From the IMG/VR virus record IMGVR_UViG_3300045988_155334: DNA of 64,000 bases, one strand, 5' to 3'. This document shows, piece by piece, positions 42,357 to 62,630 of the stretch. Each line of letters opens with the position of its first letter. Position 1 is the stretch's first letter. Below the pieces are notes generated by a model. That model had not been told where the DNA came from, searched no databases, and worked only from the letters and a program-made list of their open reading frames with translations. The stretch is from a virus. Lineage: Duplodnaviria > Heunggongvirae > Uroviricota > Caudoviricetes. Position numbers and translations under genes: made by a program.

Positions 42357-42389
42357 AATAATAAATTAATTAGTGCATATTGTCTCTTT

Positions 42390-45078: not shown

Positions 45079-45079
45079 T

Positions 45080-45096
45080 ATTGCTCTAATAATTCC
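45080..45096 (+). promoter_or_regulatory. C1 operator-like site (left copy of an inverted pair)
   Basis: ATTGCTCTAATAATTCC, 14/17 match. Confidence 0.45.
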
Positions 45097-45104
45097 ATAT
45101 TTTT

Positions 45105-45134
45105 AAAACGTGATGTACACTCATCACGTTTTTT
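45105..45134. terminator. Intrinsic terminator bracketed by inverted C1 operator-like sites
   Basis: aaaacgtgatg-tacact-catcacgtttttt. Confidence 0.65.
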
Positions 45135-45145
45135 ATTAGAGCAAT
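45129..45145 (-). promoter_or_regulatory. C1 operator-like site (right, inverted copy)
   Basis: Reverse complement reads ATTGCTCTAATAAAAAA, 14/17 match. Confidence 0.45.
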
Positions 45146-45159
45146 CCATAAGGTGCACT

Positions 45160-45378
45160 ATGTGGCCATTCCGACGGAAATATCACTACTGGCTGATCGC
45201 CTTTGTTACGCCGACCGGCGGTATCAGGCATGTCATCACCAGGTATCGCAACAAGAGACTCACCTTAGCCAGAATTTTACAGGCTGCCATAGGTGAGGGA
45301 CTGGATACAAATTGCGTAGTCCTTCCACCTTCATACTTAGGAAAAATGACCGAAGCACAAGCTAATACGGAACTTTGA
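45160..45378 (+). CDS. Small hypothetical protein
   Basis: 72-aa ORF with AAGGTG ribosome-binding site. Confidence 0.4.
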   Translation: MWPFRRKYHYWLIAFVTPTGGIRHVITRYRNKRLTLARILQAAIGEGLDTNCVVLPPSYLGKMTEAQANTEL

Positions 45379-45379
45379 A

Positions 45380-46642
45380 ATGAGCACTTCAGCACAAAAC
45401 CAATCAATCGAAAATGTATCTATCCCTGATGTCCTGAATGCCGGTATCCCGGCCATTATCCAGAACATCCGGGCCGCGCAACGCCGCGTTAGTTGTGATG
45501 ACCTCACAGCACGTTTTTTTGATAATGCGGTTCAGTCAGCGGAGATGCTTCACGCACAGCTTATTGATGTTTATAACGCAGAAGCTGATAGCCATAACTC
45601 CCTGGTAGATGCAGCTGAAAATATGCAGTTGGATCTCGGTCTGAAGGGTAAAGAAATTGAAGAGCTTCAGCTGCAAATTGAACATTTGAAACGCCAGCAA
45701 CAGGACGCGATCGACGATGCGACGCATGACGCCAACCAGCGTGCTGATAATGCCGAACGTATAAGCATTGAGCTGGAAACAAAACTCAATGAAATGACCG
45801 CGATGGTTGAACTGCGGAACTCACAGATTTCAACGCTAAAATCTCAATATAAAGAGATCATGAAACTTGATCCTTTTAACCTTGAGAAACGCTATAACAA
45901 AGCTAAAAGCGAGCGACAGGAACTGCGTAAGCAGGTCGCCGACCTTAACCAACAGCTCAAAAAAACTATTAAAGATGCAAGCGAGGCGCGCGTGGCATTT
46001 GCTAATAAAAAAGCAGAGGTTACCGCGCTGGTTAATGAGAATGCCAAATTTGCGACGCTCAAGAAGGAAATGTATGGCATTACTGAGCGCCGTTTCCCTG
46101 CAAGCAAACTTCATCCGACGTTAGGGCAAATCTCCTTCTTCCCGCGCCTCCTGGCTTATGGGATCTCATCGCCTAAAGAGTTCAATAACGAGCGTCCTTA
46201 TATCGTTTCTAAGCTGGACTTTGCTTATCAGTTCTGCTGCGACATGGGCTATGCCATTGATATCCGAATCAACGAATGGTTGATGCCAAACTTCCAGCCG
46301 TTGGCAATTTTCCGCGAGTTCCAGCCGGAAGGTTGGGTAGAGTTCTTCCATGAATTGATCTGTAAAGAAATGGAAAGCCGCCGCCCGGAATTGGTCCGTC
46401 GAGTTGAGTGGGCGCAAGAGGTTATGTTGGCAGATGCAGAGCTGCCGTTCGAACCGGAATTCATTGATGATCTGGCAACTAAAGGGTTGCATACCCTGTT
46501 TGATGTGGTTACCCGCCGTCATGAGCAGTTGGTTGTCGAATTGGGTTTAGAGGAAACAGCGGCAAGAAGACTTCTCGATGTTTGCTATGCACGTAGCGAT
46601 GCATGGGAAAAAGAGAACGGCGGCACTATTTACGTTCGCTGA
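45380..46642 (+). CDS. Coiled-coil protein with C-terminal globular domain (PmgS-like by position)
   Basis: 420 aa; long heptad-rich region at residues ~60-230. Confidence 0.45.
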   Translation: MSTSAQNQSIENVSIPDVLNAGIPAIIQNIRAAQRRVSCDDLTARFFDNAVQSAEMLHAQLIDVYNAEADSHNSLVDAAENMQLDLGLKGKEIEELQLQIEHLKRQQQDAIDDATHDANQRADNAERISIELETKLNEMTAMVELRNSQISTLKSQYKEIMKLDPFNLEKRYNKAKSERQELRKQVADLNQQLKKTIKDASEARVAFANKKAEVTALVNENAKFATLKKEMYGITERRFPASKLHPTLGQISFFPRLLAYGISSPKEFNNERPYIVSKLDFAYQFCCDMGYAIDIRINEWLMPNFQPLAIFREFQPEGWVEFFHELICKEMESRRPELVRRVEWAQEVMLADAELPFEPEFIDDLATKGLHTLFDVVTRRHEQLVVELGLEETAARRLLDVCYARSDAWEKENGGTIYVR

Positions 46643-46663
46643 TAGTTACAGTGTCACTTTTAA

Positions 46664-46697
46664 TGCTGGTGGAGTGCGTCCCACCAGCATTTTTTTC
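46664..46697 (+). terminator. Intrinsic terminator after the coiled-coil gene
   Basis: gctggtgg-agtgcgtc-ccaccagc followed by TTTTTTT. Confidence 0.7.
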
Positions 46698-46715
46698 GTC
46701 CAATGAGGAGGGCAT

Positions 46716-47222
46716 TTGAGTATTTTCAATAAACACGCACACCAGGAACGTCCGTACATCGTCATAGTAGATATTGATGGGACGATATCAGAGGCAACGG
46801 AAGACAGGCTGCATTTGCTTCCACCACCTGGCAAAGGTGCATTAACAGAGCACTGGAACGAGTTTAACCTTGCCTGTGACACCGATACTCCCATCACTCC
46901 AGTTATTGATATGGTGCGCCAGTTATTTAACGTTTACACGGTCTGGTTTGTAACCGGGCGCTGTGAGATCGCAAGGGATAAAACACGAGCCTGGCTGCGG
47001 AAGTACGTAACAAACGGGGCTGAGCCTTTGCTATCTATGCGTCCTGCCACCGATGACAGAAATGACGGCCCAGCAAAGATTGATCTCCTTAAGAAAATTG
47101 GTCTAAGTAAAATCGCGTTCGCGCTGGAAGATAAGATTGAAGTGGCGCGTGTTTTCAGAAGTCACGGTGTACTTACGTTAATGGTCAGGGAGTATGAAAA
47201 CGCGCTTCTTCATCAACAATAA
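46716..47222 (+). CDS. HAD-superfamily phosphatase-like protein
   Basis: 168 aa; motif I VDIDGTI; fold resembles polynucleotide 3'-phosphatase or nucleotidase. Confidence 0.55.
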   Translation: MSIFNKHAHQERPYIVIVDIDGTISEATEDRLHLLPPPGKGALTEHWNEFNLACDTDTPITPVIDMVRQLFNVYTVWFVTGRCEIARDKTRAWLRKYVTNGAEPLLSMRPATDDRNDGPAKIDLLKKIGLSKIAFALEDKIEVARVFRSHGVLTLMVREYENALLHQQ

Positions 47223-47238
47223 TTGCTCTAATAAATCT
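47222..47238 (+). promoter_or_regulatory. C1 operator overlapping the promoter of the rightward accessory operon
   Basis: ATTGCTCTAATAAATCT, 16/17 match. Confidence 0.6.
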
Positions 47239-47320
47239 TGATTTTTAAAACAGAGAAAGTGAAAATAAAAACATGCCGCAAGGCGCGGCATGTATCCAAT
47301 CAATCACAGGAGCTGAAAAT

Positions 47321-47407
47321 ATGAACACGGCATTCAAAATCATTATGGCCGCGATCTATTTCTGGCTGTTCTCTATCACTTTTGGCGGCATCGTCGCACA
47401 TGGGTAA
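47321..47407 (+). CDS. 28-aa hydrophobic peptide, first ORF of a C1-operator-fronted operon
   Basis: MNTAFKIIMAAIYFWLFSITFGGIVAHG; strong ribosome-binding site CAGGAG 8 nt upstream. Confidence 0.4.
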   Translation: MNTAFKIIMAAIYFWLFSITFGGIVAHG

Positions 47408-47416
47408 GGGGGATGC

Positions 47417-48142
47417 ATGAAAGGCGAAGTGAAAGAGCGCGGCATGATTTTCAACGATGAGATGGTCCGGGCCATCCTCGAAGGAAGGAAAACGCAGACG
47501 CGGCGGATAATGAAAAATCAGCCTGCGGAAGTTGGTCCAGAAGCACCAGTGATGGTTAGAAAAATTGGTGCAGGTTTTCAGTGGTACGGGGCTGATGGTG
47601 TAAGCAGTGTTTTCAATTGCCCCTTTGGTATCGTCGGCGATCGAATTTGGGTTCGTGAAACATGGGCGATATTAGGCAATGAGGATGGTTGCAGTGTGGA
47701 CTGGAACGACAACCTTTGTCGTGGCGATGAGAAGAACGCAGCAAGGATTTATCGGGCCAGTTGCGAGCAAAAACCTGGTGATTACGGCTTATGGTCGATA
47801 CCCGATGATGCCGACTGGAAACCTCACACTGTGAATGAAAAGTTTGATGGTGGGTGGCGTCCATCAATTCACATGCCGCGATGGGCATCACGCATCCTGT
47901 TGGAAATTACCAACGTGCGCGTTGAGCGGTTGAACGATATCAGCGAATGCGATGCAAGGGATGAGGGCGTTCCGCCTGCTGGAAGTTTGCTTCCTGATCA
48001 CCCGGGAACATTCCTTACTCCCAAGGGGGATTTCGCAATGGCCAAGGTTGCGTTCCAGCGCCTGTGGGAATCCATCTACGGCGAAGAAAGCTGGAGTGCT
48101 AATCCCTGGGTTTGGGTAATCGAGTTTGAGCGTATTCAGTAG
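47417..48142 (+). CDS. ASCH-domain (PUA-like) protein
   Basis: 241 aa; FNDEMVRAILEGRKTQTRR N-terminal signature. Confidence 0.5.
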   Translation: MKGEVKERGMIFNDEMVRAILEGRKTQTRRIMKNQPAEVGPEAPVMVRKIGAGFQWYGADGVSSVFNCPFGIVGDRIWVRETWAILGNEDGCSVDWNDNLCRGDEKNAARIYRASCEQKPGDYGLWSIPDDADWKPHTVNEKFDGGWRPSIHMPRWASRILLEITNVRVERLNDISECDARDEGVPPAGSLLPDHPGTFLTPKGDFAMAKVAFQRLWESIYGEESWSANPWVWVIEFERIQ

Positions 48143-48151
48143 GGCGAGCGT

Positions 48152-48373
48152 ATGCAATCAGTTATTTGTGAGGAAGTCGGCCTGAATAAAGCATCCCCAG
48201 CAGAGTTAAGAACAAGTCTCGAAATGGCGCATAGCCTTGCTCAAATTGGTGTCAGGTTTGTACCAATTCCAGTTGAAACAGATGAAGAATTTCACAGGTT
48301 AGCGGCATCGGCAGCACAAAAGCTGGAAATCATGGCAGCGAAAGTAGAGAAAGCTGAAGGAGCGACAAAATGA
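48152..48373 (+). CDS. Small hypothetical protein
   Basis: 73-aa ORF, translationally coupled to the next. Confidence 0.35.
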   Translation: MQSVICEEVGLNKASPAELRTSLEMAHSLAQIGVRFVPIPVETDEEFHRLAASAAQKLEIMAAKVEKAEGATK

Positions 48374-48585
48374 GCAAGCCAACCGACGAAGAAATAGTTC
48401 GGGTGTTGGAAGAACACGGGCGCTGTATGACTTACGTCGTGACCAACTGGCTTAGGGATAAATATCGCACACTCAAAACGGCATACGTTTTGCGTCGTCT
48501 AAAGAAACTGGAGTTCGACGGGAAAGTAAAGCGCGTTAACAGTTCTTATATAAGACAAATTTGCTGGGAGGCATCCAGTGAGTAA
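48370..48585 (+). CDS. Small winged-helix-like DNA-binding protein
   Basis: 71-aa ORF. Confidence 0.35.
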   Translation: MSKPTDEEIVRVLEEHGRCMTYVVTNWLRDKYRTLKTAYVLRRLKKLEFDGKVKRVNSSYIRQICWEASSE

Positions 48586-49222
48586 CCGTTTTTACATGAT
48601 GTGCTTGCGTGAAACTGTGGGTAATAACGCCTCATTCCATTGCCATAACGGCAATGGTTACAGTTCTGATATCGATCGCGCTCATGTTTACACGCTGGAA
48701 GAAGCCCAAAAAGCCTGGAATTGTGGGCGAGATATCGATCAGCCTGTTTGTGCCGATAGTGTGGATGCAATGGCTGTGTGGCACGTTGATTGCCAGTACA
48801 TCCCTACAGAAAGCCTGATTGAGTCAGATTGCACTGAGTATGTGGCCTACAAAAAAGGTAGCTGGAACGGCAACGATGTTTACTGGCTTCAACACGGTGG
48901 ATTGCCAACAGATGACTTCAGTAAAGCGACCATCTTTAGCGTCGCCAACAAAAACGAACCAGGAATAGTTTGGTTGCCATTTTCCATTGCTGATGCAGCA
49001 AAGCGCCGGACGTTCAATATCAATAACTTTAACCGCAGAACAATGGTTCAGGGCGCAGGTTTGGTCATGCCTGACTGGTTGAAAGAGCAGAACAGAAGAA
49101 AGAAGTCGCGAAGCGGGAAGGTGCGTTGGAATTGTCCGCATTGCGGAAAAATAACCTGGCAGTACAGCCCATATGATTTTGAAGGCTGTAGTGATTACAA
49201 CTGTGAAGGATGGCGAGAATGA
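48578..49222 (+). CDS. Cys-rich protein with C-terminal zinc ribbon
   Basis: 214 aa; ...CPHCGKITW...CSDYNCEGW. Confidence 0.4.
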   Translation: MSNRFYMMCLRETVGNNASFHCHNGNGYSSDIDRAHVYTLEEAQKAWNCGRDIDQPVCADSVDAMAVWHVDCQYIPTESLIESDCTEYVAYKKGSWNGNDVYWLQHGGLPTDDFSKATIFSVANKNEPGIVWLPFSIADAAKRRTFNINNFNRRTMVQGAGLVMPDWLKEQNRRKKSRSGKVRWNCPHCGKITWQYSPYDFEGCSDYNCEGWRE

Positions 49223-49899
49223 CAATTGACTATCAGGTACTGCGTGAGGCGGCAGAAAAGGCAACACCAGACGAATGGGTCGCATTTATTTCGACGGATA
49301 CTGGTACTTATGCGGTGCACACGCCCGGTGATGAACGATGTGAAGACGTTATCAAATGGACCGGCTTTGATGGACAGAAAAATGCAGAGAACAACGCTCG
49401 TCATGTTGCCGCGTTCAACCCAAAGGTTGCACTGGAGCTGCTTGGTGAAATTAAGTGCCTGGAGGACACAAATATTGATGCTATGTGTCGAATTGCAGAG
49501 CTTGAGACTAATCTCGCGGCGCTGGTGGCGGAGAATGCGGGGCTAAAGGCGATATGTGATGACCGTCGCAGATTCATCATGAATGGGGTGCAGATGGGTT
49601 ATATCAAGGTGCCAGCAGCGGAAACAGATCCAGACCTTGAGACAATTCGCATTGCTATATCACCACAAAAGCCCATTCCAGCCACTGATGCTTTCCTGTC
49701 TGAAGTGCGGGCGCAGGGGGTGGATGCTGCTATAGAAGCTGCAAAAAATCTGGTGGTCCAAGAATATGAGTATAAGGATTTCAAAGCGGCGCAGAGTGAT
49801 TGCTGTATGCACCCTGGTTCAGACCTGGTAGGGAAGGTTGAAATGACTGAGTGGTTAGTTGACTTTGCTGCCCAGCTTCGCAAAGGAGGCAACCAGTGA
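49210..49899 (+). CDS. Ead/Ea22-like protein, paralog 1
   Basis: 229 aa; N-terminus IDYQVLREAAEKATPDEW; coiled coil. Confidence 0.45.
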   Translation: MARMTIDYQVLREAAEKATPDEWVAFISTDTGTYAVHTPGDERCEDVIKWTGFDGQKNAENNARHVAAFNPKVALELLGEIKCLEDTNIDAMCRIAELETNLAALVAENAGLKAICDDRRRFIMNGVQMGYIKVPAAETDPDLETIRIAISPQKPIPATDAFLSEVRAQGVDAAIEAAKNLVVQEYEYKDFKAAQSDCCMHPGSDLVGKVEMTEWLVDFAAQLRKGGNQ

Positions 49900-50522
49900 G
49901 CGAAATTAATTACCAGGCATTGCGTGAGGTGGCGGAACGTGCAATTCCAGCAATGGAACGCCTGTTAATGTTGCCAGCTGATGATGATTTGTTAAGTGAA
50001 CAGGAACTTAAAGATTACGGTGTGGATATTGATGCGCTCAACGCCTTCAAATTTCTGACCGGACCAGAAACCGTGCTGGCGCTGCTGGATGAACGGGAAA
50101 GAAACCAGCAATACATAAAACGCCGCGACCAGGAGAACGAGGAAATTGCGCTAACTGTAGGGAAGCTGCGTGTTGAGCTGGAAGCCGCAGAGAAGCGCAA
50201 CGCAAAATTACAAAGCGAGAATGCATACATCCGCAACCGGTTCAAAGAGCTGGACCTGTTAATCGGGAAAAACATTCTGGTCATGCAGGCTGCGATTATC
50301 GAATGGCAGGCAACTGGCGACGCTAAAAGCGGACTGGCATGGATTTATAACACACTGTTTGGCCCAGGCGAATTGCCGGACGAATCTGAGAAAGATGCTC
50401 AGGCCTACTTTAATCGCAAATATGCACCGATTGACGAAAAGCTTATGGAGCTTCACAAGTGGTTTTGGGAACAAAGTGAAGCCGAGCGCGCCGCTGGCAT
50501 TCGCATCAAAGGAGGTGAGTAA
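49896..50522 (+). CDS. Ead/Ea22-like protein, paralog 2
   Basis: 208 aa; N-terminus INYQALREVAERAIPAME; coiled coil. Confidence 0.45.
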   Translation: MSEINYQALREVAERAIPAMERLLMLPADDDLLSEQELKDYGVDIDALNAFKFLTGPETVLALLDERERNQQYIKRRDQENEEIALTVGKLRVELEAAEKRNAKLQSENAYIRNRFKELDLLIGKNILVMQAAIIEWQATGDAKSGLAWIYNTLFGPGELPDESEKDAQAYFNRKYAPIDEKLMELHKWFWEQSEAERAAGIRIKGGE

Positions 50523-50694
50523 TGCGTGTGGCATTTTTCGGCTTGTTACCGTACCCGCCTTGTTTTTGGACTTCTGCGCTAATTGCAAAGCCGCATGTCC
50601 TGATGGCTGACAACATCATCCCGGCACCAAAGCGCCGCCATACCGGTATTGCGGCTGCACGACGCGAAGCAAAGAAACGCAGGAGAGCAAAACG

Positions 50695-50883
50695 ATGAAA
50701 AACCGTAAAGCAAAGATTCTGTTAGTTCGTAGAAACGCTCCTGGCGTCTGGCAGTGGGTGAGACTCAGCAACCGACGGATGGGGTTGATGAAATATTACG
50801 GGATGATGGATTGTGGTTTTTGCAAAAAGCCCAGCGCGGCGCAAAACCGCTGGAAAAACCACTTGCGCACTAAAGGAGAGTGA
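50695..50883 (+). CDS. Small basic protein
   Basis: 62-aa ORF; start overlaps a preceding 58-aa ORF (50522-50698). Confidence 0.25.
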   Translation: MKNRKAKILLVRRNAPGVWQWVRLSNRRMGLMKYYGMMDCGFCKKPSAAQNRWKNHLRTKGE

Positions 50884-51104
50884 TGTGCCGACATTATTCA
50901 GAAAAGAATATCCGCGAAAAAGTAGAGCGACAGAATTTCTGTTTCTCATTCTGTTTATCGTGTTGATGACACCGATATCCCCGCTAATTTTTGTCTGGGT
51001 AATCGGGAAAATAATTGAGCCAGTTATTGAATTGTATAACGACGTGGTATGGGCGTCGTTCAATACACTGCACAATAAAATTAATCCATATAAGGAAAAC
51101 TGAA

Positions 51105-51470
51105 ATGGCACTGACGAAAAAACAACGTGCAGAGCTGCGCATGAAGTTCGGCGGTCGCTGTGCTTATTGTGGCTGTGAACTTGGCGAAAAGTGGCATGCA
51201 GACCATGTAAAACCGGTCATTCGTTTTGCTGGGAATATGCTTCACCAGGAACGTGACGATATATCCAACCTGGTTCCGGCATGCCACCCATGCAATCTGC
51301 ACAAGCATTGCAGTAGCCTGGAAGATTATCGGCGAATTATCAGTGATGGTCGTCGTGAATTCCTTGCGTCCGGGAAAGGCAAAGCGCTGGTTCGTATGGG
51401 ATTGGTTGAAATGAAATCTGACCCGGTTGTGTTCTGGTTTGAAAAATATCAAGAAGGGGATACGGCATGA
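51105..51470 (+). CDS. HNH endonuclease
   Basis: ORF 51015-51470; likely ATG 51105 after AAGGAAAA; CAYCGCEL...HADHVKPV...NLVPACHPCNLHKH. Confidence 0.7.
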   Translation: MALTKKQRAELRMKFGGRCAYCGCELGEKWHADHVKPVIRFAGNMLHQERDDISNLVPACHPCNLHKHCSSLEDYRRIISDGRREFLASGKGKALVRMGLVEMKSDPVVFWFEKYQEGDTA

Positions 51471-51853
51471 CCACTATTACCAAAGAGCGACTGCTGACAA
51501 TCAAGCAGTGGCGCGAAACATACGGACCTGGTAGCAACGTTGTACTGCCAGCAGAAGAAGCGGAAGAACTGGCACGAATTGCTCTGGCATCGCTGGAAGC
51601 AAAACCAATAGGTGCTTTCCACATTGCAGAACAGCAGGTCGATGGCACAAGTGACTACATCAAGGATGGGGAATGGCCTATTGATAATGGAATTATTGAG
51701 GTCTACGCCGCTCCACCCGTTCCAGTAGTACCGGAAGAAAAACCAATGCCTAATCCTCTTAGCATGTACGCGGTTGATGCTGTTGCCGCTATTGCAGAGG
51801 TAAGAGGCTGGAACGCCTGCCGTGCCGCTATGCTTGAGGGTAAAGGAGAGTGA
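51467..51853 (+). CDS. Hypothetical protein, paralogous to the N-terminus of the DUF551-like protein
   Basis: 128 aa; shares IALASLEA and GWNACRAAML with 52063-52947. Confidence 0.4.
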   Translation: MTTITKERLLTIKQWRETYGPGSNVVLPAEEAEELARIALASLEAKPIGAFHIAEQQVDGTSDYIKDGEWPIDNGIIEVYAAPPVPVVPEEKPMPNPLSMYAVDAVAAIAEVRGWNACRAAMLEGKGE

Positions 51854-51854
51854 T

Positions 51855-52052
51855 ATGGACAAAAACACACCTGCTTACTGGAGTTTATCACTTGATACTG
51901 AATGCCCAAAATGCGGCCACAATTTCGATCTGCTTTGCGATGCTGATTTCTGGGAATTTTCTGGAGCAAAACAGGCATGTGAAGAAATAAAAGGTTACGA
52001 AACATGCTGCCCAGAATGTAACCATGAATTTAAAACAGATTTTGTGTATTGA
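51855..52052 (+). CDS. Small zinc-ribbon protein
   Basis: ORF 51822-52052; likely ATG 51855 after AAAGGAGAG; CPKCGHNF...CCPECNHEF. Confidence 0.4.
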   Translation: MDKNTPAYWSLSLDTECPKCGHNFDLLCDADFWEFSGAKQACEEIKGYETCCPECNHEFKTDFVY

Positions 52053-52062
52053 GGCATAACGA

Positions 52063-52947
52063 ATGACCACTTTTACTAAAGAACAATTAATAGAGATAAT
52101 TAAGCGCAATATAACGGTTATGGATCGTTATCCTGATTTAGTAACTGCACAAATGGATCTGGAAGTATACAAAATCGCGCTGGCATCACTGGAAGCAGAA
52201 CCAGTTGCTTATATTTTCAAACATCCGGCCGGGAAATTATTCTGGGCTTTAACGGATGAAAGCAATAAAGAGCAATCGGACGTTATTCCTGTTTATGCTG
52301 ACTCACCTGCGCCGGTTGTGCCGGATGAAATAGACGTAAACGATGTACCAAGGGCGGTGACATATTTCAAGACACACAGAGATTGTTACGCAGATGGCTG
52401 GAACGCCTGCCGCGCCGCCATGCTTCAGTCCGGAAACTTTCGGGAAAACAAGAATTCGTCAACCAATAATTTTCGGGAAATCGCGGAAACGTCAACCAAC
52501 TATCCGGTAATTCCTAGTGAGGTGTTGTCCGCAATCCTGAAGGTTGCCAAGATTCGTGCCGATTTCGATGATTTTGACGGTGACAGGCGAGGTATCGGTG
52601 ATTGTCTGGATGAGGCTGAGCAAGAGCTTATCGTTACCATTAACAAATATGCCAGTCAGTTGGCAGCAGAACCGATAGCGACTAATGACGTTCGAGAGCA
52701 GACAGCCATTCCGCAAGTTCCGGTAACTCCGGATGGTTGGATAAGCTGTAGTGAGCGAATGCCGAATACCAAAACAGCCGTGCTTGTTGCCGTGGAGTTT
52801 GACAGGAAAGGTGACTGGCGAATGAAATGGGCTACTTACATCCCGGGGCATCCTGACGCTAATGATGGGTGGATAATTCCTGGTGCGTCGTGGAAACCGT
52901 CACACTGGATGCCGCTACCAGAACCGCCGCAGGAGGTGAATCAATGA
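52063..52947 (+). CDS. Protein with DUF551-like C-terminal domain
   Basis: 294 aa; C-terminus PDGWISCSERMPNTKTAVLV...HWMPLPEPP typical of lambdoid-phage DUF551. Confidence 0.5.
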   Translation: MTTFTKEQLIEIIKRNITVMDRYPDLVTAQMDLEVYKIALASLEAEPVAYIFKHPAGKLFWALTDESNKEQSDVIPVYADSPAPVVPDEIDVNDVPRAVTYFKTHRDCYADGWNACRAAMLQSGNFRENKNSSTNNFREIAETSTNYPVIPSEVLSAILKVAKIRADFDDFDGDRRGIGDCLDEAEQELIVTINKYASQLAAEPIATNDVREQTAIPQVPVTPDGWISCSERMPNTKTAVLVAVEFDRKGDWRMKWATYIPGHPDANDGWIIPGASWKPSHWMPLPEPPQEVNQ

Positions 52948-53029
52948 GCTGGCCTGAAGCATTCACCACGGTAGGAATTGTGATGGCGGCAGCGCTGGGT
53001 TTGTATTCAATTTGTCGCTGGTGGTAACG

Positions 53030-53263
53030 ATGGGGAAATTAACTTTTGTAGTCGAATTTGAGGATGGTAAAGAGCCACCTGTTAGCGCCAATCTTGATGT
53101 TGCTGGTGGCAGGCTTGTTTCGGTTCTATTTGGTGACTACCGAGATGACTTCTTCCAACCAGAAGAAGTTGATGTAGTGCGAGAGGCATTAAACGAGTTA
53201 AGTGTTGACAACGATGATGCTCATGCGGAAATCATCCAAAAAATGGAACTGCTAACTCACTAA
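53030..53263 (+). CDS. Small acidic hypothetical protein
   Basis: ORF 53012-53263 (TTG); likely ATG 53030. Confidence 0.3.
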   Translation: MGKLTFVVEFEDGKEPPVSANLDVAGGRLVSVLFGDYRDDFFQPEEVDVVREALNELSVDNDDAHAEIIQKMELLTH

Positions 53264-53441
53264 ATTAGAAATTATGGTGCTATCACCTACGACACCGAGA
53301 GAAAATTTATAATGTCAAAAGTAAATGTTTTGATTTTTTCAGCAATTGTTGGCTTTGGTTTTACTGCCGGAGTGCAGATTTATATTACGTGGGAAAAAAT
53401 CATCAACTACGCATGGAGTTGTTTTATTAAGTGAGGTAAGT

Positions 53442-53735
53442 ATGTGGAGAGGTAATAGTCATGGCAAAAGCCAGATGATACTTACCGAATATCAGCTCGA
53501 CCACAAAACCAATAAATCACGCTCAGTATATTTGCTCCGGCACAATAGCCGTGTAAGAAATACCGTGCTGGAACAAAATCTGACAGTTGAAATGGATAAT
53601 TACGGGGGCTTCAAGCCAACAATTTCGCTTGATGATTTTCCTCGTGGTTTAAGCGAAAGAGAAGCAATGCTGAAATTAGCAGAATGGCTACAAAGATTAA
53701 GCATTGCTATTGAAGATAACTGGTCTGAACCTTAA
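53442..53735 (+). CDS. Small hypothetical protein
   Basis: ORF 53346-53735; likely ATG 53442 after GTGAGGTAAG. Confidence 0.35.
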   Translation: MWRGNSHGKSQMILTEYQLDHKTNKSRSVYLLRHNSRVRNTVLEQNLTVEMDNYGGFKPTISLDDFPRGLSEREAMLKLAEWLQRLSIAIEDNWSEP

Positions 53736-53741
53736 ATTTAT

Positions 53742-54116
53742 ATGATGACACTAAAACATTTTCTTGACCGCCCATTATGGGCGGCAGCCGCAGGCTATGA
53801 CTTTAATTATATGGATTGCATGTCTTATACTGCCAATGCATACGACCATTCGTTCACCCTGCTGTTTAATTCTTTAAGAATATTGCCGGAAACAGAAGTT
53901 GGAGAGCTTCATTTATGGCTATTGGGCTTTATCGCGGCTGTCGTTGGCATTGCTGTATGGCCTTTTATTTTCTGGCTGGTGGCTGTTGTAGTGTGGTTTA
54001 AGTGCAAGACATACCGGAAAAAGTATTTCTTGGGTGACGGAATGACTGATATTGCCAAAATGAACATTGAAAAATGGACTAAGGAATGTGAAAAGAAATG
54101 GCGCAAAAAGAAATGA
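53742..54116 (+). CDS. Small membrane protein
   Basis: 124 aa; two hydrophobic helices (LWLLGFIAAVVGIAVWPFIFWLVAVVVWF). Confidence 0.4.
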   Translation: MMTLKHFLDRPLWAAAAGYDFNYMDCMSYTANAYDHSFTLLFNSLRILPETEVGELHLWLLGFIAAVVGIAVWPFIFWLVAVVVWFKCKTYRKKYFLGDGMTDIAKMNIEKWTKECEKKWRKKK

Positions 54117-54778
54117 CTACTCTAACGACAGCATACTTACAGCAATTGGTATTTTTTGCAGGCGAGGCTACTTGTCATCCTGACACAAACTATTTATTGG
54201 AATTTGAGAGGTTAGCGTCACCCGGTATCGTTCTGGAACTGGCCCAACAGGTACTGGCCTTGAGACAAAAAGAGCAACATGAAAGTAATACGTGTAGATT
54301 GAATTTTGAGCAGTGGCTGGAACAGCAACGCGGAAAAATCGATGTGGACTGTGGTTGTGTGTCCACTGAAACATTCATGCACTGGCTGCGGGTAGCTTAC
54401 GAGGCTGGCAACTATCCGGATATTCCGGATAGTTCGGTGTCAGCGCCAGGAAAGGGCGTCACCGGTGGACGTATCCGCATTAAGCCGCATGTTTATCGCG
54501 AACTGGTTAACCGTCTCCACGATACAGCGATCAAGTGTGCTGGCACCCAGCAATTACGAGAAAGAATTAGCCGTGTTTTGGGCGACGTTATTACGCCAGA
54601 TCATCATAAACAAGCCGAGAAAAGTGGCTTGGAAAGGTGTCACCTTGAGGCGGCATTAAACATTAAGCCGGGGCATACGCTTGGCATTATTGATGCACTA
54701 TTGGTTCATAAGATGGCCAGGGCTTTATTGCCGCTGGTGGCTGAAAAGCATGAGGCGGACCATGCCAACGAAAGCTGA
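54098..54778 (+). CDS. Hypothetical protein
   Basis: 226-aa ORF; start overlaps the preceding gene. Confidence 0.4.
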   Translation: MAQKEMTTLTTAYLQQLVFFAGEATCHPDTNYLLEFERLASPGIVLELAQQVLALRQKEQHESNTCRLNFEQWLEQQRGKIDVDCGCVSTETFMHWLRVAYEAGNYPDIPDSSVSAPGKGVTGGRIRIKPHVYRELVNRLHDTAIKCAGTQQLRERISRVLGDVITPDHHKQAEKSGLERCHLEAALNIKPGHTLGIIDALLVHKMARALLPLVAEKHEADHANES

Positions 54779-55046
54779 GTTACAGGCGCGCATAGAGATT
54801 CTTGAAAAAGAGAATGCGAGTCTAAAAGGAATGCTGGCGCGGGCGGAAAGGGAATTATCAGGCAAATTATTGCCAGAAGAGCTGCCACCAGCAGATATAC
54901 CTGATCGAGTGTCCTGGTGGATGAAGTATTTCCGTGCACCGTGGGAGGCGTTTTGGTGCTACGACCATCGCAGATGGTGTGATGAGCTTGATAGCAGTTT
55001 CCCCTATTTTGCGGAAGGGAACTCTTGCCCTGAATGTAGGAGTTAA
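54762..55046 (+). CDS. Coiled-coil protein with C-terminal Cys motif, paralog A
   Basis: ORF 54681-55046; likely ATG 54762; C-terminus PWEAFWCYDHRRWCDELDSSFPYFAEGNSCPECRS. Confidence 0.4.
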   Translation: MPTKAELQARIEILEKENASLKGMLARAERELSGKLLPEELPPADIPDRVSWWMKYFRAPWEAFWCYDHRRWCDELDSSFPYFAEGNSCPECRS

Positions 55047-55351
55047 TGATGACCGGCGAGCTTTATTTTAAAATGGCACGGGAGCGGCGTGTGCATCTGG
55101 ATCGGATATTTCATCTCCAGAAGAGAGTAGAAGAACTGGAACGTCGTCTGAACTGTTATCCTGTTGATATGGTGTCTGCAATACCGCCGATTCCAATAGA
55201 AATGCAGATCCGCCTATGGATGGAAGAATATGGAATGCCGTGGGAGATATTTTTCTGCTTCGACCATAAACAGTGGGTAGATGAGCTGGATAATAGTTTC
55301 CCATATTTCACAGAGAACACATGCCCAGTATGCAGGAAGAACGGAATATGA
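55046..55351 (+). CDS. Coiled-coil protein with C-terminal Cys motif, paralog B
   Basis: 101 aa; C-terminus PWEIFFCFDHKQWVDELDNSFPYFTENTCPVCRK. Confidence 0.4.
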   Translation: MMTGELYFKMARERRVHLDRIFHLQKRVEELERRLNCYPVDMVSAIPPIPIEMQIRLWMEEYGMPWEIFFCFDHKQWVDELDNSFPYFTENTCPVCRKNGI

Positions 55352-55872
55352 CAAAATTTGGAAAGCTGGAAGCTCATTTGCTAACTCGTAACTACCGCCA
55401 TGATATACACCCATATAGACAGTGGATCGATGAAAGCGAAGGAGTAGTTACATTCCCTCTATACAGGTTTGATGGGATGTTGGCTGGGTATCAGACATAT
55501 AGACCAGGTGCTCCTAAGCAGCATAGCAATCCGAAGATGGCCCGGTATTTCACGCGATCACACGGCAGACAGTTACTTTGGGGAACCTATCTTCCTTTAA
55601 AAGATGGCCCAATATGGATAACTGAGTCTATTTTTAAGAGCGCAGCTGTACACAATGCGGGCGGCAATTCGTGGGCGCTGTTAGGTTCGACTTTCTCCGC
55701 AGGATTACGCCGTCAACTTGCGATGCTGCCGTATGACTTTCGTGTAATAGGTGACAATGATGCGGCTGGTAAATTACTTGTGAAGTCTTTCGGAAAAGGT
55801 TTTGTGGCCCCGGATCTTGACGAGCTACAACCACATGAAGTGTCTCATTTGATTTTTAGCCATAGCAAATAA
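55348..55872 (+). CDS. Standalone Toprim-domain protein
   Basis: ORF 55321-55872; likely ATG 55348 (ATGA overlap with the upstream stop); conserved Glu in ITESIFKS and DxD in VIGDNDAAGK. Confidence 0.5.
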   Translation: MTKFGKLEAHLLTRNYRHDIHPYRQWIDESEGVVTFPLYRFDGMLAGYQTYRPGAPKQHSNPKMARYFTRSHGRQLLWGTYLPLKDGPIWITESIFKSAAVHNAGGNSWALLGSTFSAGLRRQLAMLPYDFRVIGDNDAAGKLLVKSFGKGFVAPDLDELQPHEVSHLIFSHSK

Positions 55873-55932
55873 GCATCTCTCCCCTTTGAGGCCACAATTA
55901 GTGGCCTTAAACAATGTGTTTTCTACCTCGAT

Positions 55933-56514
55933 TTAGCCTCTATTATCGTTTTGCATTTCTCTAATCCGGTTCAGAACTACTTCATGCTGGGCTTGGATAG
56001 CGGCTTTTTCGTTTTCAAGTCGGGCAATAGACATCTCTAATTCTTTGCTGTACCAGGCGAGTTGGGCCAGGTTCATCCGGTTGTGGTCGAGAGTTGGAGA
56101 CACGTCGACGCGCTCCCTTTCTTCCTGCTTTAATGAGAAGAGATTCATCTCATCCCTTGAGGAAAATTCAGCAACAATTTCTTGTTGATGATCCGGTCGC
56201 TGCGGCATCCTCGCCAGTATAAATGGCGGTTCTTTTGAAAACATGAATGTCGGCTGTGACCGTGTTTTCACCCATCTAGCCTGCTGCCCTTCGGCAAGTT
56301 CACAGGCTTCATCATAGTTATTTGCCAAACCAAGCACGGATGGACGGTCCCACGCGCCACCATTCAGACAATAAACAACAATTTTCCCGTCAGGTTGTGT
56401 AACCCCATAGGGATGGTCCCACCAGACGTCCAGCTGAGCTTTAGAGCGTTTCTCGTTAGGAGTGCAGTCAAAATTTTTGGGCAATACAGGATCGAGAGGA
56501 ATGCGGGCAGGCAT
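55933..56514 (-). CDS. Hypothetical protein divergent from humD (Lxr-like by position)
   Basis: 193-aa ORF; LexA box lies in the shared upstream region. Confidence 0.35.
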   Translation of the reverse strand: MPARIPLDPVLPKNFDCTPNEKRSKAQLDVWWDHPYGVTQPDGKIVVYCLNGGAWDRPSVLGLANNYDEACELAEGQQARWVKTRSQPTFMFSKEPPFILARMPQRPDHQQEIVAEFSSRDEMNLFSLKQEERERVDVSPTLDHNRMNLAQLAWYSKELEMSIARLENEKAAIQAQHEVVLNRIREMQNDNRG

Positions 56515-56652
56515 AGCTAATTCCTTATTAACTGATTGGCAACGAGGTTACGCTGATCCGTTGGTGATGAATAGTAGCAAAGCGCACAAAATCATCAGCG
56601 GTGGTTGATGTACGTAACGCGTTTGCACCAAAGGTGTCTCTTTAATGTATAC

Positions 56653-56668
56653 TGTATAAATGAACAGT
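56653..56668. promoter_or_regulatory. LexA (SOS) box
   Basis: CTGTATAAATGAACAG, perfect CTGT-N8-ACAG, 21 bp upstream of humD. Confidence 0.75.
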
Positions 56669-56688
56669 ATTGTTGAGGTGAAAACGCT

Positions 56689-57078
56689 ATGGGCTTCCCT
56701 TCTCCTGCGGCGGATTATGTTGAAAGCCGAATTTCTCTTGATCAGCAACTAATCAGGCATCCATCAGCGACCTACTTCATGCGGGCGGCAGACAGCCATC
56801 ACCGTGAGGGAATATTGCAGGGTGCTTTGCTGGTGGTTGATTCCTCGCTTACTCCGGTTGATGGTTCGCTGCTTGTCTGCGCTATGGAGGGTGAATATCG
56901 CATAAAGAGATACCGAAAGTATCCGCGCCAGCACCTGGAGGATTTAAGCACCGGGAAGAAAGAGGCGTTACCAGTAGATGACGATGGTTACACGGGTAGT
57001 AATGCTGTTTTTGGTGTGATCACTCATGTCATCAATGATGCCCGAAGTGGGGAATTTGATGATTGTCCGGTGATTTAA
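56689..57078 (+). CDS. humD: HumD, UmuD'-like translesion-synthesis accessory protein
   Basis: 129 aa; UmuD C-terminal-domain-like, lacking the cleavable N-terminus. Confidence 0.8.
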   Translation: MGFPSPAADYVESRISLDQQLIRHPSATYFMRAADSHHREGILQGALLVVDSSLTPVDGSLLVCAMEGEYRIKRYRKYPRQHLEDLSTGKKEALPVDDDGYTGSNAVFGVITHVINDARSGEFDDCPVI

Positions 57079-57144
57079 GCTGCAAAGTGCTGGTGCTTTA
57101 TGCCTGTGAAGTTTATAATTGTGTACACATAACGAGTACACGAG

Positions 57145-57372
57145 GTGTTTATGCAATCCATTAACTTCCGTACCGCGCGCGGCAACCTTTCTGAAGTGCT
57201 CAACAATGTTGAAGCCGGGGAAGAGGTTGAAATCACCCGCAGAGGCCGTGAGCCAGCAGTAATTGTCAGCAAGGCTACTTTCGAAGCCTACAAAAAAGCG
57301 GCGCTGGATGCTGAATTTGCATCCCTGTTTGACACCCTGGACTCCACCAACAAGGAACTGGTTAACCGATAA
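57145..57372 (+). CDS. phd: Phd antitoxin
   Basis: 75 aa, [39 protein letters not shown]...; stop overlaps the doc start. Confidence 0.9.
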
Positions 57373-57752
57373 TGAGGCATATATCACCGGAAGAACTGAT
57401 AGCGCTTCATGATGCGAATATAAGCCGCTACGGCGGCCTGCCTGGTATGTCAGATCCGGGCAGGGCAGAGGCCATTATCGGGAGAGTCCAGGCCAGAGTT
57501 GTGTACGAAGAGATTACCGACCTTTTCGAAGTCTCCGCAACCTACCTGGTGGCTACTGCGAGAGGGCATATATTCAATGATGCCAATAAGCGTACCGCGC
57601 TAAACAGTGCGCTGCTATTCCTACGCCGTAACGGGGTGCAGGTATTTGACTCACCTGAACTGGTAGACCTTACCGTAGGGGCTGCAACTGGTGAAATCGC
57701 CGTATCTTCAGTCGCAGAAAAGCTACGTGAACTATATGGTTCCAAGACCTGA
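57372..57752 (+). CDS. doc: Doc toxin (Fic-fold kinase)
   Basis: 126 aa; Fic-like [11 protein letters not shown] motif. Confidence 0.9.
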
Positions 57753-57771
57753 GTAGTGGAGTTACGAAACA

Positions 57772-58047
57772 ATGTCGAAAATTAACTTAAGGACCGAATC
57801 TGCGGTGTTCAAGAATCCTACGTTTAACGTACCCAAACAAACGCTTGATGAACTTGTGCCGATTGATAGTAGGTTTGTTATTCCTGCGGAACTGGTCGAG
57901 AACTGCAAAGAGAAGCAAAAGTCGTTAAAGGAAATATCGCTTTCTGAACTCCTCTCCCGCAGTGATGTAAGTAAGGAGGAGATTTTAAGGGCGATATCTG
58001 CATCTACTGCTACCACGCTACGTAGATTGTATGGTTCCGCGGAGTAG
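57772..58047 (+). CDS. Post-doc small protein (PdcA-like)
   Basis: 91 aa; C-terminus LRRLYGSAE echoes the Doc C-terminus LRELYGSKT. Confidence 0.4.
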   Translation: MSKINLRTESAVFKNPTFNVPKQTLDELVPIDSRFVIPAELVENCKEKQKSLKEISLSELLSRSDVSKEEILRAISASTATTLRRLYGSAE

Positions 58048-58231
58048 ATTAATGGCACGTAAATACAACAAATTGTCCCGTGAAGCGTTAAAGATGCTTC
58101 TTGATGGCGTGAGTCGCCGCAAGGTAAAGCAATACCTGGTTGGTAAGCAAATTGGAGCCAGGACTGCTATTGCTGTGTTATGCCGTCAGGAAATGGTTGT
58201 GCTTAAACAGAGAATGCCGGGCAGCAGATAA
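58031..58231 (+). CDS. Small basic protein, possible helix-turn-helix
   Basis: 66-aa ORF; probable start at internal Met (MARKYNKLSREALKML...). Confidence 0.3.
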   Translation: MVPRSRLMARKYNKLSREALKMLLDGVSRRKVKQYLVGKQIGARTAIAVLCRQEMVVLKQRMPGSR

Positions 58232-58258
58232 AGCCCAATCAGTGATGAAAGGTGTGAT

Positions 58259-59302
58259 GTGAAAGCCGTAATTACTCCCTTTGTACAAAAAGAGCTTGGC
58301 GTCGCCACATTCAAAGTGGATCAGGAAGTCAGAAAGCTGGTGGAGGCTGGCCGTAAATTTATTATGGAGCCGGTGCCGCGTGAGTTAATCGAGCACATGG
58401 ACGACGGCCTCGTTGTTTCCGAGCAAACTATGGCAACAAATGAGGCGTTGCAGCCGTTTTTTAACAGCGATGAACTGTTTCGCCGTATTGGTGGAATTGA
58501 CGCGCTGGTGGCGTGGTTGCGCAGGAAAGAGGGGCAATGCCAGGCCGCAGATCGTAGCTGGTGTGACAACCATATTGTCCACGCAGAACGAGACAATAGC
58601 GCGGTGTTGTTGTGCTGGCATCACGATAACCATTACAGGATGCGTGGTTTTAATGAGCTGAAAGAAACGCTGCATAATAATCGCGTTAACTGGATACTGG
58701 ATGTCGCCCGTCAGGAAATGGGGCTTTCAGATGGCCATGATTTAAGTATTCAGGAACTGTGCTGGTGGGCTTTCATGCGCGACATGATGCACCTTATGCC
58801 GGAAGAAGTCTGCCGTATATCAATAAATAAGATTAAGGCAGCAACGCAGGATAGCGGACCTCTGAAAGAGGCGGATATTCGCCCGTATGACGATCGCGCT
58901 ACAGCATATGTTCAGATGATGGAAGAACGCGCCGCGCCGATGCGAGCAAAAGTATGCCCTGTGGATGTTGACTCCGACCCTGGCATGGCGCATTTCAAAA
59001 TACCAAAACTGCAATCGCTAAAATTACCTGAGTACATGGACTTTGTTGCTTCCCGTCCATGCTGTGGGTGTGGAGCTGCGGGAGCTGGCGCTCACATTAC
59101 GCCTTATATCGTTCGTCATAGTCGATTATGCGCGCATGACATTTATGCGATTCCTCTGTGCCAGTCATGCCAGCGTGATATTGAGCGTGACCGCGATAAT
59201 TGGGAGAAAACACACGGCAGGCTGGCGATGCATCAACGATTGTTCTTTGATTACGCGCTTGGAGTCGGCGCTATCACAAGTCATTCGTCGAGCGTTAGAT
59301 AA
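58259..59302 (+). CDS. Cys-rich hypothetical protein (PdcB-like by position)
   Basis: 347 aa; several Cys clusters including [12 protein letters not shown]. Confidence 0.4.
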
Positions 59303-59319
59303 AATTGCTCTAATGTGTT
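59303..59319 (+). promoter_or_regulatory. Weak C1 operator-like site upstream of lpa
   Basis: ATTGCTCTAATGTGTTG, 11-12/17 match. Confidence 0.3.
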
Positions 59320-59390
59320 GCTATTTCTTTAATCGAGGGTATTATATTCCACGTTGATTAGTTGACATGGGCTAATCAGTAGGTGACAGG

Positions 59391-59843
59391 ATGTTACTTA
59401 ACTGGCAGGGACGCCACTTCATGGAAATAAATCACTCACGAATAACATCGTATGAGATTGCGGATTACATGATCCGCACTAAATCTCTTCTATCAGCGAA
59501 AGAACTCGCAGCAATCCTTGAAAAGGAATACCCGCATCTGGATGTCGATAAGCGCGACGTTTATCTGCGCTTAAAGGCTATCGCTGTGTCTAAGTATTCG
59601 TCTGTTTTGATTGATGACAGTACACGCCCACGTAGATTTCAGATCCACTCTCTGAACCCTGAATTCTTTCGCCGCAGCCGCGCACCGCGCCGGTTTGATG
59701 AAAAACTCCAGAACGAACTCTATATGACGCAGGACGAAAAGGAACGCCGGGAGCACCAGCCTTGGGTAATGGCGCGTCAACTTTTCAATAAGGTGGCCCG
59801 TCAGCACCGTAATTACGGTAATGCCACATCCGCACGTATCTGA
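59391..59843 (+). CDS. lpa: Lpa-like late promoter activator
   Basis: 150-aa ORF (alternative start at 59418) between the addiction module and pacA, as in P1. Confidence 0.5.
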   Translation: MLLNWQGRHFMEINHSRITSYEIADYMIRTKSLLSAKELAAILEKEYPHLDVDKRDVYLRLKAIAVSKYSSVLIDDSTRPRRFQIHSLNPEFFRRSRAPRRFDEKLQNELYMTQDEKERREHQPWVMARQLFNKVARQHRNYGNATSARI

Positions 59844-59928
59844 TTGATTGCTTGCCCGTTCCGGGCCTTTTGACATGTGACTTTCGTTACCCTCGCGTCA
59901 AAAAGAGTTTTTACGAAAGGAAGCATAA

Positions 59929-61122
59929 GTGACCTGGGACGATCACAAGAAGAATTTTGCTCGCCTGGCGCGAGATGGTGGTTACACCATCGCACAGTAT
60001 GCCGCCGAGTTTAATCTTAACCCTAATACCGCACGTCGTTATCTCCGTGCCTTCAAAGAAGACACCAGGACAGCGGACAGCCGCAAGCCAAATAAGCCAG
60101 TCAGGAAGCCACTAAAAAGCATGATCATTGATCACTCTAATGATCAACATTCAGGTGATCACATTGCGGCGGAAATAGCGGAAAAACAAAGAGTTAATGC
60201 CGTTGTCAGTGCCGCAGTAGAGAATGCGAAGCGCCAAAATAAGCGCATAAATGATCGTTCAGATGATCATGACGTGATCACCCGCGCCCACCGGACCTTA
60301 CGTGATCGCCTGGAACGCGACACCCTGGATGATGATGGTGAACGCTTTGAATTCGAAGCTGGCGATTACCTGATAGATAACGTTGAAGCGCGGAAGGCCG
60401 CGCGCGCTATGTTGCGTCGGTCCGGGGCCGATGTTCTGGAAACCACTCTTCTTGAAAAGTCTCTTTCTCATCTCCTTATGCTGGAGAACGCCAGGGATAC
60501 GTGTATTCGCTTGGTGCAGGAAATGCGCGATCAGCAAAAAGCCGATGATGAAGGTACTCCGCCTGAATACCGTATCGCGAGCATGCTAAACAGCTGTTCC
60601 GCGCAGATAAGCAGCCTGATCAACACCATTTACAGCATCCGGAATAACTATCGAAAAGAAAGCCGGGAGGCGGAAAAGCACGCTTTATCTATGGGGCAAG
60701 CTGGCATTGTTAAGCTGGCATACGAACGAAAGCGTGAAAATAACTGGTCAGTGCTGGAAGCGGCTGAATTCATCGAGGCGCATGGAGGGAAAGTGCCGCC
60801 CCTGATGCTGGAACAAATCAAAGCCGATCTGCGTGCTCCTAAGACAAATACCGATGATGAGGAAAGGCAAACTGCCGTCGGTGGCCCTTCTCTTGAAGAT
60901 CTGGACAAAGTTGCGCGAGAACGGGCCGCCAACCGCCGCGCCGATGCTGCATTGTGGATTGAGCAACGTAGGGAAGAAATCGCCGATATCGTTGATACAG
61001 GCGGTTATGGAGATGTTGATACTGAAGGTGTATCAAACGAACCATGGCTGGAACAAGACCTGGACGAAGACGAGGAGGAAGACGAAGAAGTTACCCGCAA
61101 GCTATACGGGGATGATGATTAA
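59929..61122 (+). CDS. pacA: PacA, terminase small subunit (contains pac site)
   Basis: 397 aa, GTG start; pac hexamer clusters lie within the 5' third; acidic C-terminus. Confidence 0.85.
60121..60281 (+). other. pac packaging site: four TGATCA hexamers, spacer, three TGATC(A/G) hexamers
   Basis: TGATCA at 60122, 60129, 60141, 60157; TGATCG at 60252, TGATCA at 60264 and 60275; each holds a Dam GATC site. Confidence 0.8.
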
Positions 61123-62606: not shown

Positions 62607-62630
62607 CTCATTGACCATGCCGGATAGAAA

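Follow-up and report, generated by a model that had tools for sequence, protein, structure and literature searches.

Could a dense run of small genes in a phage-plasmid be an inserted island that arms its host against other phages, or is it simply part of the element that carries it? This question is raised by a 64,000-nucleotide stretch of DNA from a virus of the Caudoviricetes (IMG/VR record IMGVR_UViG_3300045988_155334; the whole stretch is hereafter termed the window), which BLASTN against reference P1 (NC_005856) identifies as a P1-like phage-plasmid, and in which 16 open reading frames (ORFs), g7 to g22, lie on the + strand between 50522 and 55872. An initial annotation, made from the letters, had taken this block for an accessory insertion, perhaps strain-specific, with domains of the kind seen in defence or counter-defence modules. 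We conclude instead, with a probability of roughly 85%, that the block makes up the distal two-thirds of a single early operon, under repressor control, in a P1-like phage-plasmid, and that it carries the usual mosaic cargo rather than forming a new defence island. The locus itself has already been described, since pmgT-hot-lxr-humD is listed as "variable region 8" among eight hypervariable regions of P1-like phage-plasmids (PMC9603915), and what is new is this gene combination within a known variable locus.

The block belongs to a longer, predicted operon

The string g7-g22 is unbroken, with 14 solid ORFs and two tiny ones (g14 and g16), and covers 98.6% of 50522-55872, the gaps summing to 76 nt. 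At 11 of the 15 junctions the neighbouring genes overlap or are no more than 2 nt apart, the range being -19 to +10 nt plus a single 48-nt gap. None of the 16 ORFs is interrupted, starts and stops overlap in a matched way, Shine-Dalgarno-like sequences are present, and the models of g12, g15 and g17-g22 agree with the RefSeq genes (Prokaryotic Genome Annotation Pipeline, PGAP) of the closest plasmid, NZ_CP063155. The tightly packed, unidirectional block that had been noticed is therefore real, and the earlier count of about 14 ORFs is corrected to 16, including the weak calls g14 (27 aa) and g16 (40 aa). The borders of the supposed insertion, at 50522 and 55872, do not hold, however, because g7-g22 are the last 16 of 22 consecutive + strand ORFs, g1-g22, which span 8.5 kb (47417-55872), and the differences from P1 fall at 48113-54397 and 54744-55946. 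Nor does composition give a clear island signature: the GC content is 0.39-0.52 against 0.478 for the window, and only g16-g18 are mildly AT-rich.

Where is such a string switched on and off? The following features bracket it.

47194-47223, + strand: promoter-like site, overlapped by the C1 operator
47222-47238, + strand: C1 repressor operator ATTGCTCTAATAAATCT, with one mismatch to the consensus
55885-55911, no strand given: terminator-like GC-rich hairpin with an 11-pair stem, between g22 and the converging lxr
55933-56514, - strand: lxr, which converges on g22

According to the P1 and P7 annotations, the operator corresponds to OpmgT/Op88 of P1 and to Op(hea) of P7, and the operator/promoter stretch falls in a segment that is 98% identical to P1. 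In the window, 10 matches to the C1 operator were found where 0.37 were expected, and the next one after 47222-47238 is located only at 63577. A scan of 47100-56700 gave 13 promoter-like sites, no more than the 13.2 expected by chance, no P1 late-promoter box is present on the + strand within the block, and the hairpin just past g22 is the strongest terminator-like hairpin on that strand. Based on the upstream operator/promoter, the chance-level internal promoters and the hairpin after g22, we infer that g1-g22 constitute a single C1-repressed early operon, and the operator, as far as its sequence can tell, argues against expression of the block in the lysogen. An Rfam scan of 47000-57500 (E<=0.1) found no RNA family.

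A probable deletion and a replacement in reference P1

How, then, does this operon relate to the P1 locus? The genes that matter for the comparison are as follows.

47417-50522, + strand: g1-g6, the proximal part of the operon, outside the block
54098-54778, + strand: g19, 226 aa (phrog_21459)
54762-55046, + strand: g20, 94 aa, paralog of g21 (phrog_3797)
55046-55351, + strand: g21, 101 aa, paralog of g20 (phrog_3797)
55348-55872, + strand: g22, 174 aa, Toprim protein (phrog_849 "DNA primase", 1e-53)

By BLASTN, the window is colinear with P1 at 38928-48112 (98% identity) and at 55947-64000 (93-96%), where the P1-colinear content is lxr, humD, phd-doc, pdcAB, lpa, pacAB and c1. Between these stretches the match to P1 is limited to 54397-54743; the 6,285 bp of 48113-54397 are absent from P1, and 54744-55946 is replaced there by other DNA. 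The comparison with P1 that had been proposed as a check on the block thus agrees with the initial annotation, in that the block is not colinear with P1 and is missing from it apart from that short match. The P1 alignments meet at adjacent coordinates, 9184/9183 of locus L001 (NC_005856 85182/85183), with a TT microhomology at the junction. Over residues 1-232, P1 PmgT is 100% identical to g1, a gene that in the window ends at a stop codon of its own; residues 233-309 of PmgT correspond to the middle of g19 in another reading frame, and P1 PmgU matches residues 114-214 of g19. Because the ORFs are intact here and truncated or joined in a frame-shifted fusion in P1, the difference is read as a deletion in P1 and not as an insertion here. 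The parsimonious interpretation of the sequences is that the P1 lineage lost 6,285 bp, that is, g2-g18 and half of g19, and P1 pmgT and pmgU look like artefacts that this deletion produced. The 80-bp junction of P1 type occurs in 5 of 72,556 plasmids in PLSDB.

The +3 frame inside g19 (54396-54659), which gives the C-terminal 77 residues of PmgT in P1, is open in the window too and 92% identical.

At the right end, pmgV-upfMNO-hot stands in P1 at the place of g20-g22. This element lacks pmgV, upfM-O and hot, and has 22 genes in region 8 where P1 has 7 annotated ones. P1 Hot, a homolog of the theta subunit of DNA polymerase III, occupies the same slot as g22, immediately before the converging lxr, and each is an accessory protein of replication type; however, the two have no sequence relationship, and Hot is the common allele (367 PLSDB plasmids), whereas intact g22 is rare (48 plasmids, with the complete g20-g22 module in 13). 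The earlier remark that no theta-like (Hot/HolE-like) ORF is present was confirmed by tblastn of the whole window, for which the best E values were 4.5 with P1 Hot and 0.89 with Escherichia coli HolE. About 94 P1-like plasmids without the remainder of g22 still have its last 217 bp (55656-55872), unannotated, beside lxr, and the P7 copy of g22 is interrupted by IS903.

A mosaic of lambdoid cassettes

Is the cargo specific to this strain? At a coverage of at least 80%, the block was recovered from none of the phage records and from one of the 72,556 plasmids (NZ_CP063155, 81%), whereas pieces of it were found in 677 plasmids and 466 phage records. Of 5426 complete E. coli genomes, 3399 contain pieces of the variable region (48100-56000), mostly within prophages; these pieces map to 7765 chromosomal and 747 plasmid places, and no E. 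coli record reaches 80% of the whole region. Consequently, the suggestion of strain-specific cargo is appropriate for the combination, which is rare, and not for its pieces.

The P1-like hypervariable region 8, known as the "pmgT operon" in P1 and the "hea operon" in P7, has the same position as the operon described here, between pap and lxr/humD(-phd-doc), the same upstream C1 operator (Op88/OpmgT) and promoter, and different gene sets in each element. In a tblastn matrix, the gene subset differs in each of the six P1-like loci compared (P1, P7, RCS47, SJ46, D6 and NZ_CP063155), and the C-terminal domain of g19 is the sole part of the block common to all six. Relatives carry frameshifts, truncations and the IS903 insertion in the region. 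Against this background the present element adds the HNH gene g10, which is absent from all six loci, and holds the rare g20-g21-g22 module in intact form.

Related genes are also found well outside the P1-like elements. Parts of 50522-52940, within g7-g13, are about 96% identical at the nucleotide level to segments of Shiga toxin (Stx) and Sepvirinae phages. In Ss-VASD, an Stx-type phage, the homologs fill the stretch from exo to xis-int along with DUF551, Ead/Ea22 and DUF1382 genes, and in TL-2011b they are located downstream of the replication genes, in a nin-like position; the lambdoid flavour ascribed to the block is well founded in both. In addition, the GenBank notes of D6 tie its genes at this locus to phiV10, ES18, 933W and mEp phages.

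The closest analogue is the exo-xis region of lambdoid phages (ea22, orf60a-63, ea8.5 and the Stx variants), which shares Ead/Ea22, DUF551 (EaA-like) and DUF1382 with the operon (Pfam matches of g2, g5, g6 and g13) and likewise consists of small, dense, mosaic genes behind a repressor-controlled early promoter. In lambda these genes are early, mosaic and dispensable in the laboratory, and DUF551 has been described there as a portable domain (PMC10834534). The block differs in that its operon is flanked by P1 pap and lxr under C1, not by exo and xis under pL/CI, and in that it additionally has HNH and primase-like genes. By analogy, it would work like an exo-xis region without being a member of that class.

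The probable course of events can be outlined as follows. The operon is built from small cassettes of the kind that lambdoid, P22-like and Stx prophages have in their exo-xis ("ea") and nin-type regions, and these cassettes are reshuffled between elements by homologous recombination, at shared genes and junctions, as well as by illegitimate recombination; P1 is best read as a reduced version, with the 6.3 kb deletion and a different right-end cassette (pmgV, upfM-O, hot). In the lysogen, C1 at the operator would silence the operon. On infection or induction, the sigma-70 promoter would fire and the coupled genes would be co-produced as dispensable early helpers. Among these are the small HNH nuclease, the primase-like enzyme that lacks a zinc domain, membrane peptides, and small proteins of zinc-binding and coiled-coil type. 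The exo-xis analogy suggests that such helpers, neither structural nor essential, would adjust host physiology, replication or the choice between lysis and lysogeny; the early timing and the physiological roles given here to the block genes are of this conditional kind. We infer their dispensability because P1 lives without most of the block and because CRISPR interference (CRISPRi) and deletion screens score the genes of the P1 locus as non-essential (PMC10695390).

Some points weigh against this interpretation. The direction of the P1 difference, deletion or insertion, is a parsimony argument, and the function of the operator is deduced from its sequence identity with P1. Internal promoters below the strength detectable in a consensus scan might drive some genes in the lysogen. 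Furthermore, the analogy with exo-xis is drawn from shared families and from the position behind an early repressor-controlled promoter, not from phenotype.

Gene content of the operon

In the proximal part of the operon, g1 is an ASCH-type protein, g2 has DUF1382, and g5 and g6 are Ead/Ea22-like, whereas g3 and g4 have no match in Pfam. The C-terminal half of g6 (49896-50522), residues 96-199, matches the "DpdH" model PDLC02890 of PADLOC (E=4e-37). The match means either that a portable Ea22-type C-terminal domain has a relative in DpdH, a protein of the Dpd deazaguanine system, or that phage-derived sequences went into the PADLOC model.

The genes of the block that precede g19, all on the + strand, are listed below.

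50522-50698, + strand: g7, 58 aa (phrog_13831), small and basic, of unknown function
50695-50883, + strand: g8, 62 aa (phrog_1380), small and basic, with a single CxxC, of unknown function
50885-51103, + strand: g9, 72 aa, DUF4014 membrane peptide (Pfam 1.6e-25; phrog_1832), hydropathy 2.68, GTG start
51105-51470, + strand: g10, 121 aa, small HNH endonuclease (PF01844, 30 bits against a cut-off of 21.4; phrog_2118, 1.7e-56)
51467-51853, + strand: g11, 128 aa, paralog of the N-terminal 125 residues of g13 (BLASTP 35%, 1e-13)
51855-52052, + strand: g12, 65 aa, zinc ribbon CPKC...CPEC with two CxxC (phrog_4173)
52063-52947, + strand: g13, 294 aa, with an N-terminal module, a variable middle and a C-terminal DUF551 (EaA-like)
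52944-53027, + strand: g14, 27 aa, hydrophobic, a weak call without family match
53030-53263, + strand: g15, 77 aa (phrog_3876), annotated in SJ46
53312-53434, + strand: g16, 40 aa, membrane peptide (phrog_5525), a weak call, annotated in SJ46
53442-53735, + strand: g17, 97 aa (phrog_1258)
53742-54116, + strand: g18, 124 aa, membrane protein (phrog_2638)

PHROG families already exist for every ORF of the block except the 27-codon g14, and nearly all of them are of unknown function. Most of the gene identities proposed in the initial annotation were upheld, namely the HNH endonuclease (g10), the DUF551-like protein g13, whose domain lies at residues 225-290 (Pfam 5.9e-21), with its N-terminal paralog g11, and the small membrane proteins g9, g14, g16 and g18, each of which has a hydrophobic window of 19 residues with a mean hydropathy of at least 1.8. 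The exception is the pair of zinc ribbons: g12 is one, but g8 has a single CxxC, and the other protein with two CxxC motifs is the HNH protein g10 (at residues 19 and 60). Homologs of g7 and g8 are found in RCS47 and TL-2011b, and those of g13 in the exo-xis region of Ss-VASD, while g17-g18, the AT-richest segment (GC 0.39-0.41), are both kept in RCS47, SJ46 and NZ_CP063155. Searches of PDB sequences with g10, g13, g17, g19 and g22 gave nothing useful.

Two kinds of repeat were noted in the left half of the block. A 33-nt repeat is present at 51806-51838 in g11 and at 52396-52428 in g13. An identical 14-nt junction, TAAAGGAGAGTGAT, followed by the start codon, precedes both g9 (50871-50887) and g12 (51841-51857); it holds the codons for the end of the preceding gene ("-KGE stop") together with the Shine-Dalgarno sequence of the next one. 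The genes behind it are the two lowest-GC small genes in this half (0.38 for g9 and 0.39 for g12), and the junction may be a portable cassette boundary.

Could the block act against host immunity?

Among the alternatives, the one that survives best is that the block is counter-defence or host-takeover cargo, in which one or more early genes (HNH, g22, the zinc proteins, the membrane peptides) neutralise host or prophage immunity on entry of the phage-plasmid into a new cell or on its induction. We hold this to be possible but unlikely. The position in an early repressor-controlled operon fits it, and so do the distant g22 homologs that lie beside Lar-like, GmrSD-like, T7-kinase-like and MazE-like genes in the early regions of lytic phages. 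The gene content also turns over fast between close relatives, as in arms-race loci, although neutral mosaicism explains the turnover equally well, and searches of Pfam, NCBIfam, the PHROG annotations and PDB sequences matched no characterised anti-defence protein. Such a role is conceivable for some of the genes and would be a special case of the mosaic early operon, with which it is compatible.

The primase-like protein g22 and its neighbours

The standalone Toprim protein seen at the end of the block was confirmed as g22, in which E93 and D136-x-D138 are invariant in the family alignment. For its AlphaFold2 (AF2) model, which has a predicted local distance difference test score (pLDDT) of 91.6, the 37 best Foldseek matches in PDB are all RNA-polymerase domains of DnaG, T7 gp4 or T4 gp61 primases (E 2e-5 to 1e-3; template modelling score, TM, 0.5-0.65 normalised to the query), and RNase M5-type Toprim domains rank below them. 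We are confident in the prediction, made from the model, that g22 is a minimal DnaG/gp4-type primase catalytic core, composed of the N-terminal subdomain and Toprim. It shares with these primase domains the predicted fold, the Toprim Glu and the DxD motif; however, it has only 174 residues, aligning to positions 143-333 of the 435-position phrog_849 profile, and has no zinc-binding domain, since it is without any cysteine. Profile scans found neither a helicase or helicase-binding domain in g22 nor a helicase gene in the operon.

Members of the family are stand-alone proteins, some 160-190 residues long, and a profile search returned 1711 cluster representatives (50% identity) at E<=1e-3, of which 173 reach E<=1e-30, mostly stand-alone. 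In Kagunavirus the homolog directly follows the helicase in the replication module, a neighbour seen only there, and other distant homologs are located among early accessory genes. Eight metagenomic relatives (P0105, P0177, P0124, P0168, P0191, P0167, P0208 and P0175) are fused to other domains, that is, PolyA_pol/CCA-type nucleotidyltransferase (twice, in both orders), cytidylyltransferase, GNAT+Arr, Mom, HAD, ParB-like and zinc ribbon, but never to a helicase; these are candidate fusions that could be gene-calling read-throughs. A Rosetta-stone search among the fused relatives gave no consistent partner for g22.

The coiled-coil/Cys-motif pair reported next to it is likewise genuine. The proteins g20 and g21 are 52% identical (BLASTP, 1e-20) and share an invariant C-x2-H-x19-C-x2-C motif, a putative zinc site, and the residues C66, H69, C89 and C92 together with a long N-terminal helix are found in 26 family members. 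In the AF2 model of g20 (pLDDT 85) the helix spans residues 4-33. Proteins of the g20 family (P0021, P0028, P0035, P0044) are often named "antitoxin PHD" in NCBI; they have no PhdYeFM match in Pfam and carry the CHCC motif, and the name is probably a misannotation propagated from proximity to phd-doc.

Could g20 and/or g21 supply g22 with the zinc domain that it lacks? In such a split primase, the CHCC domain would be given in trans, and the complex would prime lytic replication in the slot of hot, perhaps with the Ban helicase. It is known that the zinc domain of T7 gp4 can act in trans. The three genes are translationally coupled, the CHCC motif is similar to the CHC2 pattern seen in DnaG zinc domains, the fold of g22 is of primase type and its catalytic residues are intact, and the Kagunavirus homolog stands next to a helicase. 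However, neither g20 nor g21 has a zf-CHC2 match in Pfam at E<=0.01, the g20 model has no fold match in PDB (best E 3.2), and three distant g22 homologs have upstream neighbours that bear no relation to g20. Moreover, RCS47 and D6 have g20 without g22, the full module is present in far fewer plasmids than full-length g22 (13 against 48), and the fusion partners in the g22 family are generally not zinc domains, nor helicases. The split primase, being unsupported by synteny, Pfam or fold search, was set aside as improbable and is kept only as a long shot.

A broader proposal is that the g22 family is a large group of uncharacterised phage accessory enzymes, perhaps acting beyond ordinary lagging-strand priming, either with g20/g21 as a split primase or with Ban/DnaB, and that g22 is an alternative allele to Hot at a "replisome-accessory slot". 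We regard this as speculative and doubtful.

Passenger DNA or a defence island?

The ORFs might also be decaying passenger DNA, recombination remnants without a selected function here. Such decay is visible in relatives, with their frameshifts, truncations and IS903 insertion and with the many plasmids that retain just the end of g22, and reference P1 lives without most of the block. Within the window, however, every one of the 16 ORFs is open, with start-stop overlaps and Shine-Dalgarno-like sequences in place, the families are conserved over distant hosts, and the catalytic or metal-binding residues are invariant, which makes decay an improbable account of this copy.

The remaining idea is that HNH and Toprim form an anti-phage system that shields the lysogen. 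Restriction-modification and superimmunity genes are indeed present in other variable regions of P1-like elements (PMC9603915). We scanned 14 of the 16 block ORFs (the tiny g14 and g16 being left out) and the six upstream genes against PADLOC-DB 2.0, and no complete known defence system was found among them. The matches of g10, which are PtuB-like and retron-HNH-like, are weak and confined to a generic HNH domain (residues ~6-79; PtuB and PDC-M01B; best E 2.6e-08, 32 bits), no partner proteins for them are present, including a PtuA-type ATPase, and g11 has a marginal PglZ match (E 0.0015). NCBIfam and PDB sequence searches add nothing on defence. A defence system in the block was therefore rejected, and with it the defence-type module suggested at the outset. 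A lysogen-protecting island is very unlikely, since g22 resembles primases and not the Toprim nucleases of OLD or Gabija type, a C1 operator precedes the operon and promoter-like sites inside it are not in excess, and g10 and g22 are 3.9 kb apart and inherited independently.

Implications

The block looks exotic beside reference P1, yet it shows a known variable early operon in its normal, fuller form. If pmgT and pmgU are, as they appear to be, by-products of a deletion, then these two textbook genes are not natural genes, and "putative morphogenetic" is a misnomer for them. The variable region of P1 is linked to the exo-xis gene pool of lambdoid phages; the gene pool being shared, any function established for these genes in lambda or in Stx phages would also apply to P1-like phage-plasmids, themselves vehicles of resistance genes. 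Among the components of the block, the zinc-less primase-like family is the one that may be worth biochemical work, and if the doubtful proposal of an allele exchange with Hot were true, P1-like phage-plasmids would tune their use of the host replisome via interchangeable cassettes.

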